Shown: one piece after another, positions 1-64,000 of the stretch
How positions within the stretch are numbered: the stretch's first letter is position 1
Layout: each line of letters begins with the position of its first letter
Origin: Bdellovibrionales bacterium RIFOXYD12_FULL_39_22
GTDB lineage: Bacteria; Bdellovibrionota; Bacteriovoracia; Bacteriovoracales; Bacteriovoracaceae
NCBI GenBank assembly: GCA_001770205.1
Contig: MEQL01000050.1
Coordinates: 1 to 64,000 of the forward strand
Reading direction: 5' to 3'
Length of the DNA: 64,000 nucleotides
Notes under the pieces: model-generated
Database searches by the model: none
What the model was told of the DNA's origin: nothing
What the model saw: only the letters and a program-made list of their open reading frames with translations
Made by a program: the position numbers and the translations under genes

Positions 1-188
1 CAACCTCGTATCTGCTTAAGCAAGTTCTTACATAGTTAGTGAAAGTTATTTGTATGCAAAAATAATAATATCCTGCGAAAAGGTATGTCGGTATCTTGAT
101 TGCCGCACTCAAAATGTCCCCTTAACAGCTTTGTTCCTCAGACCAACTCATAACCTATACGCAACATGAAAATGCCGATCACCTATGA

Positions 189-368
189 CGTCCTATCCTT
201 CTTTTACTTTCAGAAAATTATTCAGAAAGTCTTTGCGACAGAGGCGGTTATTATTTAGGTGGTTCCCTGGGTGCCATGTATTTTGGATTAAAAGAAGATC
301 AAGGATTGGCCTCAAATTTGGATAAATTCAATTTTACACTAAGTTTAAATTTGGGTTATAAATTTTAG
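189..368 (+). pseudogene. 3' remnant of an outer-membrane beta-barrel protein gene
   Basis: Hand translation of 189-368 gives ...GGYYLGGSLGAMYFGLKEDQGLASNLDKFNFTLSLNLGYKF*, with alternating beta-strand pattern and a C-terminal Phe beta-signal. In-frame TGA at 186-188 and no intact 5' part. Confidence 0.5.
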
Positions 369-373
369 AATAT

Positions 374-408
374 AAAAAAAGGCCAAGCATAATATGACTT
401 GGCCTTTT
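374..408. terminator. Bidirectional intrinsic terminator
   Basis: Stem aaaaggccaag (377-387) / cttggcctttt (398-408) with A and T tracts, lying between convergent 189-368(+) and 431-868(-). Confidence 0.8.
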
Positions 409-430
409 CTATAGAAATAAAACTAAGAAA

Positions 431-868
431 TTATTTTACAAGAGTAAGTTTAATTTCACCTTTTTTAAGTGGGAAATTAAGCTTGGCAGCAGTTCTAACC
501 ATAGTAATGAATTGTGGGTTATTTTTTGCTTCACAACCAGAAATATCCAAGGTCATTTCAACGAGGGACATATAATTAGCTGATTCGCGAGTATTAAGTA
601 CTTTGGCGCAAGTTAAATAATTGATGTTATCTACAACACCATGCATGCCGCAACCAACGTTGCTTGGAGCGGAGTATTCAGCGGTGAATTGCACTAATTG
701 TGGACCATACGGCAGACCATAGCAACCAATGATAGGTGCTCGCTCAACAAAAAATTCTTCAGAATTAACATCTTGTACCACTAAAAATACTCTGGTTTGA
801 CCATCTACTGTGGCAAATGCAGTGAAGGAAAATAGAGTAGCTAAAAAAATTAATAGACTTGTTTTCAT
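431..868 (-). CDS. Secreted hypothetical protein, 145 aa, 4 Cys
   Basis: Sec signal peptide MKTSLLIFLATLFSFTAFA, GGAG ribosome-binding site upstream, terminator downstream. Confidence 0.8.
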   Translation of the reverse strand: MKTSLLIFLATLFSFTAFATVDGQTRVFLVVQDVNSEEFFVERAPIIGCYGLPYGPQLVQFTAEYSAPSNVGCGMHGVVDNINYLTCAKVLNTRESANYMSLVEMTLDISGCEAKNNPQFITMVRTAAKLNFPLKKGEIKLTLVK

Positions 869-1054
869 TAAGAACTCCTAGTTTTGGGTTGGTTTTGGGA
901 TTTATCAAAAATTGACACCGGCCGCAACAAAATAAACAAAAGGTTTCTAAAGATACTATTTTTTACATAGTAGGATAGATTCTCAGGTAATCATCTGATT
1001 TTATATTTCTGTCATTTATAGGAATTTATGCTAGAGTGCTGAAAATTTTCAAAG

Positions 1055-1267
1055 GTGCTACAGGGCCTCAAAGGGAAACTCATTTATCAGCAATTGCAAG
1101 GGGTCGTCGTAGATAGGACGATAGATTTTGATAAAATTTTAGGGTATCGCATCGCTAGGATTGAGCAAAAACATCTGCGCTCTTATTGTGCCTACTACAA
1201 AGGAGCAACAGATGATCGGAAACAGCATTTTCAAGGGACTCAAACTTGGATAGGCTTGCGCACATAG
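1055..1267 (+). pseudogene. Possible degenerate fragment of an AAA_14/DUF4143-type ATP-binding protein
   Basis: DFDKILGY...KHLRSYCAYY loosely resembles the post-ATPase helical segment of this family. No Walker motifs and a weak start. Confidence 0.25.
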
Positions 1268-60796: not shown

Positions 60797-60808
60797 GCTG
60801 AATTGGCC

Positions 60809-61222
60809 ATGTTGCAATCACAGGAGTTTACCTACAAAAATATTTTGGCCAAGGCCCGAGTGCGTCAGCGAGATATAATTAATCGTACGATTGATCAACT
60901 CATTAATCACGGATATTTAGTGAGGAAAAGGCCGATTATATTTTTTGATAATAAATCTTCATATCTTTCAATTTTTTCCTATATCGATCCAGGAATTGTT
61001 ACCTATCTTAATGGGGCCAATAAACTTACAGAGATTGCCATGGGCCATCAAATAGAGGGATATATTCATTCGAGACTATCTAATTTAGGCAATATTAACA
61101 CGGAATTGATTACTAACTTCGTAAAAGAGCAGCGTTGTGGATATGGAATAGTAATTTATGGAGGAGTTCCCTACAAAGATAGTAAGAAGAAGTTATTATT
61201 TGGGCCCTATTGGTTGTTTTAG
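60809..61222 (+). pseudogene. Probable C-terminal fragment of an AAA_14/DUF4143 ATP-binding protein
   Basis: YIDPGI...G.QIEGYI..RL and terminal GIVIYGG...LLFGPYWLF resemble DUF4143. The ATPase domain and the E(V/I)DF...IEVK segment are absent. Confidence 0.45.
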
Positions 61223-62008
61223 CGAAAGTTTTAGTTTACCTACTATTAAAATGGCCAGCACACCCAGCGCCAGAGAGAGGATTTCGCTATTACCATTTTT
61301 GTTCTTCTCTTGGGAGTTAAAAGAGAGTGAGCCACAAGCGAAAGGTTGCTCTATGGGATAGAGATAGGTTACGCCATCGATGTCATCATATCCTAGAGAT
61401 TTTCTTCGTTCTACAGTACTGTAATACATTAATGAATCCTTGACTGGACTATGGCCTAATCCAATGGCATGGCCAATTTCATGGGCCAGATAGGCCACCA
61501 TATCTGCTCGCTCTTGATTTTTAACCGCACTTCCAACAATATCATTAACTAAAAAAAGTGCACCGTAGATGCGATTTTTAGAAACACTATAGGAGGAGAT
61601 GATGGTGGTTCCCAAAATACCTGGATTGGTAAAAAAAGTGGTGTTGCCATTGCAGGCGATTAAAATATTCTTGGACACCTTTAGATTAGGATTGATGCTT
61701 TGACAGGAGGCAGTAATAGGATTATCTAAACAGAGTGATTCATCATGGAAAGCATCATCCACTCGCACAAGATTTCCTTTTTTTAGACGGAGAGAGCTAG
61801 TAGGAACGCTATTCCAGTAATCATTTAAGGCATCATCAAGCATATCTAAAATATCTTGGTTGGTGTACCCAATATTTTCACAGGTGTTGTCTGCCACATT
61901 AACCACCACTTCATCTTCTTCAAATTTGGCCTCAAAGCTGTTATTAAGAGTAAAAGCATAAAGATTAATGGAAAAAAAAAGCATTAAAAAAATAAAAGTC
62001 AGTTTCAT
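61196..62008 (-). CDS. Secreted matrixin-family (metzincin) metalloprotease with C-terminal membrane anchor
   Basis: Signal peptide, HEIGHAIGLGH, Met-turn SLMY, DDIDG...LY, then ACGSL, a hydrophobic helix and a basic tail. Confidence 0.9.
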   Translation of the reverse strand: MKLTFIFLMLFFSINLYAFTLNNSFEAKFEEDEVVVNVADNTCENIGYTNQDILDMLDDALNDYWNSVPTSSLRLKKGNLVRVDDAFHDESLCLDNPITASCQSINPNLKVSKNILIACNGNTTFFTNPGILGTTIISSYSVSKNRIYGALFLVNDIVGSAVKNQERADMVAYLAHEIGHAIGLGHSPVKDSLMYYSTVERRKSLGYDDIDGVTYLYPIEQPFACGSLSFNSQEKNKNGNSEILSLALGVLAILIVGKLKLSLKQPIGPK

Positions 62009-62023
62009 ATTAAGTACCTCAGA

Positions 62024-62653
62024 TTAATCCAGGTTAGGTCGCTCACCGCCGGTGGGATTGAGATGGTAATTTAATGTCGCCAAATATGCCGTATTCATTT
62101 CTGCCTTGTCGCTAATTAGGTTGAAGAAAAACAACTGCACTTTGAGGGAAAAGGATTTGCCAAGATATAACTCTGCACCACTGTCTGCAATAAAATTCAA
62201 AGAAGCGTTGCTATTTTCAGGGAGCGGAAAATAGGTGATGTTATCTCCATTCCGCAGTTTTTCCGTTCCCCCAGGGCCAGAAATAGAGGTATAGTAAAAT
62301 CCTATCCCGGACTTGATGATAGTGGGGCCTAAACGTAAACCGAGATCGCTATTAAAATACATCTGAAATTTCGAAATATTATCATCGCGAACGGTGCTTG
62401 GAAAAGTCATGCCAAATTCTTGGGTAAGAAGAAAAAAGCGGTTATGATCCCATACATACCCTACCGTGATGGTTGGTTGAAATTCGTAAGAGTTCATTTT
62501 TCCACTGTCGTTAATTTGTACTTTCCCTGGTTCTAAGGAGTAGACCCCTAGGCCTATAAAGGCATCGTAGATATTGTAGTCAATTTTAGCATTAGCACCT
62601 AAGCTAAAAAGCGTAGCAATTATAGAATAGGTCAAGGATGATTTTAATTTCAT
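62024..62653 (-). CDS. Putative small outer-membrane beta-barrel protein
   Basis: Signal peptide, alternating aromatic/Gly beta strands and near-terminal LATLNYHL. Confidence 0.6.
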
Positions 62654-63792
62654 TTTTCGCTCTGATTTTTATTATAGTTTTCTAAAAAATTACGTTTAAA
62701 TTCCACAAATCGATCACTCAAGATGGCCTCTCGTGCATCCTCGGCCATTTTTTTGTAGAAGGCAATATTGTGAGTGGTGGCCAAAATAGCACCTAAAATT
62801 TCATTAGAATCAAAAAGATGTTTGATATATGCGCGAGTGAAATTTTTGCAAGCATAGCAGTTGCAGTTAGGATCAATGGGAAAAAAATCTCGACGATAGT
62901 TGCGATGTTTGATTCTTATTTTACCGCGCGAGGTAAAGAGCGTACCGCCGCGTGCAAACTTAGTAGGAATAATACAATCACTCATATCAATTCCATGATC
63001 CCAGATCATTACTAAATCTTCTGGATTTCCCACGCCCATAACATAGCGAGGGCGGTTAGTCGGCATAAGTGGCGCGGTGTAGGAGACAATGCGCTCCATT
63101 AGATCTGGCCCTTCGCCTACGGATACTCCGCCAATGGCATAACCTGGTAGGTCGCGATCAGTTAACTCTTTTACGCAAAGTGCGCGATAGTCATCGTAAG
63201 TGGAGCCTTGGATAATTCCAAAGATTGATTGCTGCGGATTAGTCCAACTTGCAATGCAGCGATCTAGCCAGCGATGGGTTCGTTTAATAGATTGTTCTAC
63301 GTAATTGCGAGTGGCCGGATAGGGGATACATTCATCAAAGGCCATCATGATGTCAGAACCTAAATTTTGTTGGATATTAATTGAGGTTTCGGGAGAGAGC
63401 ATAATATTTTTACCGTCTTGATCCAAGAATGCCGCCCCTTCTTCATTGATACTCTTTTTTTGCAGTGAAAAGACTTGAAATCCCCCAGAGTCAGTGAGAA
63501 TGGGGCGTGGCCAACCCATAAACTTGTGCAGGCCTCCTGCTTTCTTGATCAACTCTGAAGTGGGAGATAGGTGTAGATGGTAGGTGTTGGATAGAATGAT
63601 TTCGATATTCATCTCCAAGAGTTCTTTTGTTTGTAATGCTTTTATAGTGCCGTGAGTTCCTACGGGCATGAAAACCGGAGTTTTAATTATTCCGTGTGGC
63701 GTGGTTATTTCCCCTGCTCGGGCATTAGAATTTTTGTCTTTGTGGATAAGTTTAAATTTAAAAAAATCTTTGTTTTGCTCTTGTATACTCAT
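62650..63792 (-). CDS. tgt: Queuine tRNA-ribosyltransferase
   Basis: [48 protein letters not shown] and the CNCYAC...HN zinc site. Confidence 0.97.
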
Positions 63793-64000
63793 TGATTCAC
63801 ATCACAGGTTGTGCAAATTATTACTGCATCTAAACTATTTTTAAGGTTAACCAGGCCATTTAAAAATGGGCCGGCGGTTAATATTGTTTGAGAAAAACCT
63901 TCCAGCGTAATATCTAAATCTAATCCGGCCTGCAGTAGTTTTTTTAACTCGGTTAAAAGCATATTGTCCCAAGGAGTTGTATTAGTTGAATCTTTTTTTA
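63789..64000 (-). CDS. 3' end of an unknown CDS entering from beyond the window
   Basis: Open frame [15 protein letters not shown]...[10 protein letters not shown] whose TGA overlaps the tgt ATG (ATGA). Confidence 0.7.

Follow-up and report, generated by a model that had tools for sequence, protein, structure and literature searches.

GGCC as an iterated palindrome in a predatory-bacterium genome of the Bacteriovoracaceae, and its possible origin in methylase-linked T:G correction

HIP1 and similar iterated palindromes have lacked a settled explanation for three decades. In Escherichia coli, very-short-patch repair by Dcm and Vsr is said to leave a footprint on oligonucleotide abundance, as Bhagwat & McClelland in 1992 and Merkl et al. 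in 1992 reportedly described, and Horst & Fritz in 1996 reportedly found the GGCC methylase M.MthTI of the Methanothermobacter plasmid pFV1 together with a T/G mismatch glycosylase, Mig.Mth. HIP1 (GCGATCGC) and the alternate highly iterated palindromes (HIPs) GGCGCC, GCCGGC and GCsGC are cyanobacterial words, which the sections of Elhai (2015, PMC4390886) drawn on here present as hyper-abundant in coding and non-coding DNA and scarce in foreign DNA, with a proposed origin in methylation-dependent repair. For HIPs, repair bias and selection are hard to separate because the words are long and their neighbours rare. The present analysis concerns the tetramer GGCC in a stretch of 64,000 nucleotides (the window; G000:C50:1-64000) from Bdellovibrionales bacterium RIFOXYD12_FULL_39_22, a predatory-bacterium genome of the family Bacteriovoracaceae that is assembled to 3.95 Mb in 62 contigs and 94.6% complete. 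Genome-wide, GGCC occurs 31,190 times against 5,844 expected from base composition (×5.34). The excess is real and strong and, since a 4-mer is present in more than 31,000 copies, its one-step neighbours are directly countable.

GGCC shares with the HIPs, as those sections characterise them, its hyper-abundance as a palindrome in coding and non-coding DNA, its scarcity in foreign DNA and a proposed origin in methylation-dependent repair. HIPs are matched by a resident orphan C5 methylase; this genome carries one C5 methylase, with a putative GGCC specificity. Among the features by which Elhai (2015) delimits HIPs, genome-wide excess, independence of reading frame and presence in non-coding DNA were found, whereas a word of 6-8 bases at about 1 per kb was not: GGCC has 4 letters, recurs every 127 b rather than about every 1 kb, and belongs to the Bdellovibrionota. 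It differs further in its spectrum of one-off words, dominated here by loss of the transition neighbours, and in the lack of quasi-periodic spacing. Like Dcm-Vsr, the system combines an enriched word with depletion of its C-to-T derivative, acts at the DNA level in all frames and includes a C5 methylase. Unlike Dcm-Vsr, it has a 4-mer target, a far larger amplitude (×5.3, with silent C:T of about 48:1) and effects at both C positions in this genome (at the outer one only in the family at large), and no Vsr homologue was found in the genome. The GGCC system thus belongs neither to Dcm/Vsr, for want of Vsr, nor to the HIPs, being a 4-mer at eight times their density. By analogy, the pairing proposed here, of a GGCC 5-methylcytosine (5mC) methylase with an activity restoring C at deaminated sites, would resemble M.MthTI/Mig. 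Mig, however, is an HhH-GPD protein without the catalytic lysine of Nth, whereas the HhH-GPD protein of this genome has the lysine and resembles an ordinary endonuclease III; and M.MthTI/Mig is a plasmid restriction-modification (R-M) module, whereas the methylase here is chromosomal and family-conserved. The catalytic half of the methylase resembles M.HaeIII, but R-M systems of the HaeIII type drive site avoidance and GGCC is here enriched ×5.3. In the literature searches, no account of excess GGCC in this phylum came to light.

Among the 256 tetramers GGCC ranks first in excess, whether judged by composition or by the maximal-order Markov ratio (Markov-2, ×1.82), with one site per about 126-127 b. 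The hexamers NGGCCN occur in the genome at 0.87-1.14 of their Markov-4 expectation, and the iterated unit is therefore the 4-mer GGCC; the flanks show a mild preference only (T_A > C_G > others), and no extended motif around GGCC was found genome-wide. The window contains 597 copies, compared with 99.9 expected from base composition (×5.98), 175.6 under Markov-1 (×3.40) and 318.9 under Markov-2 (×1.87), and other G+C-only palindromes are near expectation (GCGC ×1.79, CCGG ×1.50, CGCG ×1.03). Each 5-kb bin of the window has a GGCC observed/expected ratio (O/E) of 4.87-7.40 and an AGCC+GGCT O/E of 0.15-0.43, and single genes attain ×8-10. The initial annotation had counted GGCC by eye in three 600-b samples; these counts were exact (10 in 7681-8280, 9 in 26521-27120 and 9 in 53761-54360), as were its controls in 26521-27120 (CCGG 1, GCGC 3, CGCG 2). 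It had also placed the motif in genes of both strands and in the stems of two terminators, which agrees with ×6.16 in the 17 plus-strand open reading frames (ORFs), ×5.45 in the 25 minus-strand ORFs, and a GGCC in each arm of both hairpins (375-410 and 11267-11296). Its figure of about 9-fold captures a strong excess but is too high as an average, the window having about 6-fold and the whole genome 5.3-fold enrichment: the samples are GGCC-rich and have 41-47% G+C, not the 40% that had been assumed, and so overstate the mean.

The excess is not an effect of codon usage. ORF calling with a minimum length of 100 aa gave 3,246 non-overlapping ORFs, which cover 90% of the genome and leave 386 kb of intergenic DNA. 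GGCC is enriched ×5.44 in this intergenic DNA (2,113/388), compared with ×5.38 in coding DNA, and within the intergenic DNA alone by ×2.99 under Markov-1 and ×1.87 under Markov-2; the intergenic part of the window (7,872 b) holds 61 copies versus 8.2 expected (×7.47). When synonymous codons were permuted within each gene (20 replicates), which keeps the protein and the gene's codon usage, observed and shuffled counts in frames 1, 2 and 3 were 7,211/3,359 (×2.15), 3,175/1,492 (×2.13) and 18,681/6,549 (×2.85), with standard deviations of at most 85; the control words CCGG and GCGC gave ×1.10 and ×1.16. In the 42 ORFs of the window, 200 synonymous shuffles had a mean of 195.9 (standard deviation 10.3, maximum 224) versus 539 observed. 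Since GGCC fits within one dicodon, a dicodon-preserving null is invalid, and context tables and outgroup genomes were therefore used. The initial annotation had allowed that the excess might vanish once codon and dicodon usage were controlled, and be absent from other frames and intergenic DNA. Instead, the genome-wide ratios to base composition are ×5.34 overall and ×5.44 in intergenic DNA, and the excess persists in all three frames at ×2.13-2.85. The frame NNG-GCC does hold 64% of coding GGCC (18,681/29,067), as would be expected if GGCC were a by-product of codon or dicodon usage such as NNG-GCC alanine. Against this, ×2.1-2.9 remains in every frame after shuffling and the intergenic O/E is 5.44, GCC is preferred only after G and nearly gone after A, and outgroup genomes of similar G+C have no such context effect. 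Such a by-product, already refuted by the intergenic, shuffle, silent-site and outgroup results, has practically no probability left.

The direction of the bias can be seen in the neighbouring words. Genome-wide, the transition neighbours of GGCC are depleted (AGCC 0.29, GGCT 0.30, GGTC 0.40, GACC 0.41), AGCC/GGCT being the lowest of all tetramers relative to Markov-2 (0.21-0.22), and in intergenic DNA the transition neighbours are also depleted (0.37-0.59). Six of the eight transversion neighbours stand at 1.4-1.9, and GTCC and GGAC at 0.46-0.71. At silent sites, alanine after a G-ending codon (n=30,044) is encoded by GCC in 62.1%, GCT in 1.3%, GCA in 24.9% and GCG in 11.8% of cases; after C- and T-ending codons GCC makes up about 31% and GCT 30-33%, with shares of the A and G codons similar to those after G, and after A-ending codons GCC drops to 3.4%. 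Likewise, glycine before a C-starting codon is GGC in 50.2% and GGT in 5.6% of cases, compared with 14-18% and 20-30% elsewhere, while six control codon families (Pro, Thr, Val, Ser, Leu, Arg) have no comparable context shift. The silent-site C:T ratio after G is about 48:1, and the C:T shift amounts to some 48-fold at the outer position, compared with about 14-fold at the inner one. In the GGCC context, then, the pyrimidine pool is constant and T is replaced by C. Because only the transition neighbours are emptied, and T gives way to C with A and G constant, a biased resolution of T:G (and A:C) mismatches to C:G fits these data. The DNA bias also seems to reach protein sequence: dipeptides that force or favour GGCC are raised in the proteome (Trp-Pro, encoded TGG-CCN, ×1.37; Arg-Pro ×1.52; Gly-His ×1.47; Met-Ala ×1.58), compared with 0.72-0.83, 0.98-1.22, 1.05-1.28 and 1.31-1.43, respectively, in relatives and outgroups.

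The excess extends through the family, as seen in 20-kb samples of 40 family genomes and 20 genomes of other families, with the following median O/E values:

GGCC: 2.83 (1.28-6.20) in the family; 1.15 (0.61-2.19) in other families.
AGCC/GGCT: 0.74 (0.15-1.39) in the family; 1.25 (0.89-2.16) in other families.
GACC/GGTC: 0.89 in the family; 0.85 in other families.

GACC/GGTC does not separate the two groups; the effect at the inner position is thus confined to this genome and a few others. For GGCC, 26/40 family genomes lie above the outgroup maximum, and for AGCC/GGCT 28/40 lie below the outgroup minimum. GGCC is first among the tetramers in 8/21 family samples versus 0/20 in the outgroup, and in the top five in 18/21 versus 4/20 (L004, with an expectation below 8, is excluded from the rank comparison). 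In 20 further family genomes taken together, alanine after G is GCC in 56% and GCT in 9% of cases; in the outgroup the shares are 25% and 30.5%. In two single relatives other words are nearly missing from the 20-kb samples, CGCG being at 1/28 expected in L021 (G012) and ACGT at an O/E of 0.00 in L029 (G084), which points to additional R-M pressures in particular lineages.

The single C5 cytosine methylase of the genome (PF00145, 247.7 bits) lies outside the window at G000:C35:113042-114223, with motifs I, IV (PCQ), VI (ENV), IX and X intact; for N4/N6 beta-class methylases, no score in the genome passed the threshold. Its neighbours are an acyl-CoA dehydrogenase, a small ABC-like protein (a pseudo-ATPase) and two mnmA-like genes, in an order conserved in relatives, and no nuclease gene was recognised among them. 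RE_HaeIII and RE_NgoPII nucleases had no match in the genome, in searches that matched no control genome either. The closest named records are from a Bacteriovoracaceae metagenome-assembled genome (MAG) and a Halobacteriovorax sp. Orthologues with 44-61% identity occur in 117/121 family genomes, including 91/91 high-quality ones, and in 69/69 genera; in the rest of the phylum, sampled with 121 genomes from 23 families, 3/121 have any match at E <=1e-30, all at 33-34% identity. Judged from these sequences, the methylase is vertically inherited throughout the family. The family enzymes have a strongly conserved target recognition domain (TRD) with an insertion (GIRYxxDE...VDW...RFRQTKYQRLD) and a conserved C-terminal tail (R..AF.YK; reference L002:8040-9224, minus strand). 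Alignments with solved structures extend over the catalytic motifs only, and among these structures the catalytic half is nearest to 3g7u and M.HaeIII (1dct, E 1e-37).

Two further observations concern homologues and neighbours of the methylase. Distant R-M-linked homologues, each with a second C5 methylase and a nuclease gene, occur in a Pyrinomonadaceae MAG (L007, 10007-13658, which also has Vsr) and a Pseudanabaena MAG (L008, 1526-5052). The 10-21 kb of flanking DNA contain GGCC at 0/45 and 1/16.7 expected, respectively, and CCGG at 1/16.7 in L008; this is classic restriction-site avoidance. Both homologues lack the TRD insertion and the C-terminal tail, so their GGCC-avoiding hosts are uninformative on the specificity of the family methylase, and this route to it was abandoned. 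Directly upstream of the methylase in L002 (9262-9900, minus strand) is abc212, a protein of 212 aa with no Pfam family, which adjoins the methylase in at least 11/22 family loci. Its model (pLDDT 86.6) is a nucleotide-binding domain of the ABC-transporter type that lacks Walker A and has a conserved C-terminal KKxA; it was considered as the missing repair enzyme and rejected, the fold being of ABC type with nothing nuclease- or glycosylase-like.

The default output of MethylDackel consists of CpG cytosines. A methylome obtained by enzymatic methyl sequencing (EM-seq) places 5mC in a "CpGGCC" context in Bacteriovorax sp. ICPB 3264, a strain perhaps outside this GTDB family; in the parts of that paper used here, MethylDackel is named in the methods and the 5mC is credited to an R-M system (Marinov et al., PMC11789641). 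If MethylDackel reported CpG only, "CpGGCC" would be consistent with a methylated outer C in GGCC that shows up only before a G. Such outer-C methylation would agree with the stronger bias at the outer position.

On the reading that we favour, mismatches at the C positions of GGCC would be resolved to C:G (T:G to C:G or, equivalently, A:C to G:C), and GGCT/AGCC, here also GGTC/GACC, would steadily become GGCC where the protein allows and in non-coding DNA. The bias would most likely be coupled to the single C5 methylase of the genome, following the logic of very-short-patch repair of deaminated 5-methylcytosine, but by an enzyme other than Vsr. We infer a methylase that targets GGCC, probably at its outer C, and the existence of a T:G-correcting activity coupled to it. 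On balance it appears somewhat probable that GGCC is an iterated palindrome arising from a methylase-linked, Vsr-independent, context-specific bias of T:G-to-C:G correction.

Several results weigh against this reading, beginning with the T:G-specific nuclease or glycosylase that very-short-patch repair requires. Vsr (PF03852), in Dcm/Vsr systems usually encoded beside the methylase, and DUF559 had no match in the 94.6%-complete genome, and MutH and SRA were not found in the genome searches. Vsr occurs in 3/121 family genomes, once right beside a methylase paralogue, and was rejected as the cause, GGCC being no stronger in these three (×1.28, 2.96 and 3.33). The sole HhH-GPD protein is Nth (C61:204789-205196), whose catalytic lysine is present, so that it is not Mig-like; a second, MutY-like member was not found in the assembly. 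The superfamily of uracil-DNA glycosylases (UDG) is represented by an Ung and a divergent family-4-like protein, and NucS_C by a sub-threshold match only, in a 349-aa ORF resembling PD-(D/E)XK plus helix-turn-helix. That Vsr, Mig and MutH were not found implies a different corrector. The target of the methylase raises similar difficulties. Its TRD (about residues 200-303) gave no alignment with M.HaeIII or any solved enzyme, and its specificity is therefore not readable from sequence; a search for homologues of the TRD alone yielded 3 unnamed proteins. A homologue from Pelagibacter, 52% identical and with the same TRD, lies in DNA with 11 GGCC versus 8.0 expected, and the methylase alone is therefore insufficient. 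Across the family, AGCC/GGCT is at or above the outgroup minimum in 12/40 genomes, and the GGCC amplitude ranges about five-fold (×1.28-×6.2) among genomes sharing the conserved TRD. Kin are moreover not independent, so that comparing family with non-family amounts in essence to a single evolutionary contrast. The option of polarised substitution counts within genera was set aside as too saturated, the alignments being only 69-72% identical, and at about 70% identity the direction of substitution is not measurable. Ten public sequencing runs contain the stretch; in the three examined, long matches were identical to the window and gave no usable strain variants, and the differences were short patches resembling conserved segments of other organisms.

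Two observations from the same searches stand apart. The divergent UDG-like protein (277 aa) was rejected as a family-specific partner, as it occurs in many families of the phylum (63/151). A third MutS paralogue of 538 aa (G000:C44:6795-7151; L071:1237-2853, minus strand) matched only the MutS domain-V ATPase in the whole-genome Pfam search.

The initial annotation had likened GGCC to HIP1 with its methylase, offered methylation-coupled repair bias or selection for protein binding as causes, and looked to related genomes and to a GGCC methylase and Vsr-like genes for a decision. The likeness to HIP1 holds as an analogy, given one family-conserved C5 methylase and 5mC at a GGCC-containing context in another strain, and fails for word length and density. 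A C5 methylase with a putative GGCC target was duly found and Vsr-like genes were not found in the genome, and the excess proved to be family-wide, although the case for the methylase as cause of the site excess depends on a single phylogenetic contrast. Between the two causes the data favour repair bias, because the loss is confined to transition neighbours and silent T changes to C with A and G unchanged; the specificity of the methylase, the corrector and the causal link do not follow from them.

Selection would act on dense, possibly methylated GGCC marks, for strand or self marking (predator versus prey DNA during digestion), for chromatin organisation by the histones of the clade, or for binding of an abundant protein. 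A housekeeping role of this sort is suggested by the presence of the methylase in 69/69 genera without a recognised nuclease partner, and even dipeptides that force GGCC are raised (Trp-Pro ×1.37, Arg-Pro ×1.52); the sections of Elhai (2015, PMC4390886) drawn on here also regard HIP1 itself as probably selected. Selection does not, however, predict that transition neighbours alone are lost, nor that silent T goes wholly to C with A and G untouched. The intergenic O/E equals the coding O/E, the spacing is near-geometric without phasing, about 31,000 individually selected sites imply a heavy load, and relatives with the same methylase span a 5-fold range of amplitude. We consider selection unlikely as the explanation. 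A methyl-directed mismatch-repair ratchet, which in the sections of Elhai (2015, PMC4390886) drawn on here is a model built for methylase-matched palindromes of this sort, needs no dedicated T:G enzyme: an error creating GGCC in a new strand is quickly methylated, the strand is read as parental, and MutS and MutL fix the error. The genome has MutS, MutS2, a MutS-like ATPase and MutL, and no Vsr, Mig or MUG-type enzyme was found in it. The ratchet would, however, favour any site-creating error, yet 6/8 transversion neighbours are not depleted; it predicts saturation at about 1 site per kb, compared with one per 127 b here; and MutH was not found in the genome, where no methyl-reading nickase is known. 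It is accordingly quite unlikely.

It is also conceivable that GGCC is a passive sink, AGCC/GGCT being avoided as unprotected near-cognates cut by a restriction-like nuclease. These words are indeed as rare as classic restriction targets (0.21-0.22 of Markov-2, and 0.05 in the frame NNA-GCC). Under avoidance, however, GCT would shift proportionally to GCA, GCG and GCC, whereas GCC alone gains; GGCC is enriched in relatives without AGCC/GGCT depletion (L019, ×3.28 with AGCC at 1.38; L023, ×4.07); and no HaeIII- or NgoPII-type nuclease was found, in searches that had no positive control. We know of no 4-base asymmetric restriction specificity of the AGCC/GGCT kind, and avoidance seems very improbable.

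GGCC is enriched along the whole genome: all 762 of 762 5-kb windows have an O/E of at least 1.1 (median 5.58, 5th percentile 3.13), and over these windows GGCC and AGCC+GGCT are inversely related (r = -0.44). Gaps between sites are near geometric, save for a 3-base coding periodicity and a surplus of gaps above 800 b, which correspond to islands; no regular or quasi-periodic phasing was found in the genome spacing analysis. The lowest-GGCC windows lie mostly at contig ends and carry phage-type integrases, defence genes (SIR2-like, Abi, OLD-family and GmrSD), a PstI-type R-M pair and GNAT cassettes; one more has about 50% G+C. Low GGCC in islands of integrase, defence and R-M genes thus marks imported DNA yet to gain the signature, and the bias is a process resident in the genome.

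Four low-GGCC islands were delimited, at G000:C23:1-20000 (L061), C46:1-8000 (L062), C48:1-6000 (L067) and C53:1-16000 (L060). They contain two phage-type integrases, SIR2-like proteins, an Abi_C protein, an OLD-family nuclease and a PstI/BsuBI-type R-M pair adjoining GmrSD-like and RelA/SpoT-like genes, and are probably defence islands.

The window itself carries ordinary chromosomal genes, including those for pyruvate:ferredoxin oxidoreductase, oxaloacetate decarboxylase, an AcrB pump, RmuC, a type II secretion operon, glutamine synthetase III and Tgt. Its features with respect to GGCC are as follows (proteins assigned by Pfam):

1-64000, both strands: GGCC sites, 539 in 42 ORFs and 61 in 7,872 b of intergenic DNA; the same partitions hold 25 AGCC and 66 GGCT.
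375-410, minus strand: terminator-like hairpin, each arm of its stem containing GGCC (AAAAGGCCAAG ... CTTGGCCTTTT).
7643-11257, plus strand: pyruvate:ferredoxin oxidoreductase, 1204 aa; GGCC 42 versus 7.4 expected, AGCC+GGCT 7.
11267-11296, plus strand: terminator-like hairpin 3' of the pyruvate:ferredoxin oxidoreductase gene, terminator-like on both strands; TGGCCA stands at each end of the stem.
25609-28716, plus strand: AcrB-type efflux pump; GGCC 36 versus 5.5 expected; contains the sample 26521-27120.
53606-55813, plus strand: type III glutamine synthetase; GGCC 25 versus 3.9 expected; contains the sample 53761-54360.

The window also encodes, at 3085-7242 on the plus strand, a protein of 1,385 aa that combines RCC1-like repeats with several HYDIN/CFA65-type Ig-like domains, which is unusual in a bacterium; it may be a surface or predation-related protein.

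The clean, transition-only signature, with its silent C:T ratio of about 48:1, is the expected mark of biased T:G correction. The family has cultured and partly prey-independent members and a published EM-seq methylome, which makes experimental dissection feasible. In practice, GGCC density together with scarcity of AGCC/GGCT tells native from imported DNA in these genomes, and the bias skews codon-pair statistics, which is relevant to codon-usage or binning work on the clade. More tentatively, it is possible, though we hold it to be doubtful, that the Bacteriovoracaceae carry a hitherto undescribed, Vsr-independent enzyme for T:G-to-C:G correction in the GGCC context, working with a family-wide housekeeping 5mC methylase that would probably modify the outer C. 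Silent sites, intergenic DNA and dipeptide usage would then have been rewritten by this activity, and the methyl mark may serve to separate predator from prey DNA.

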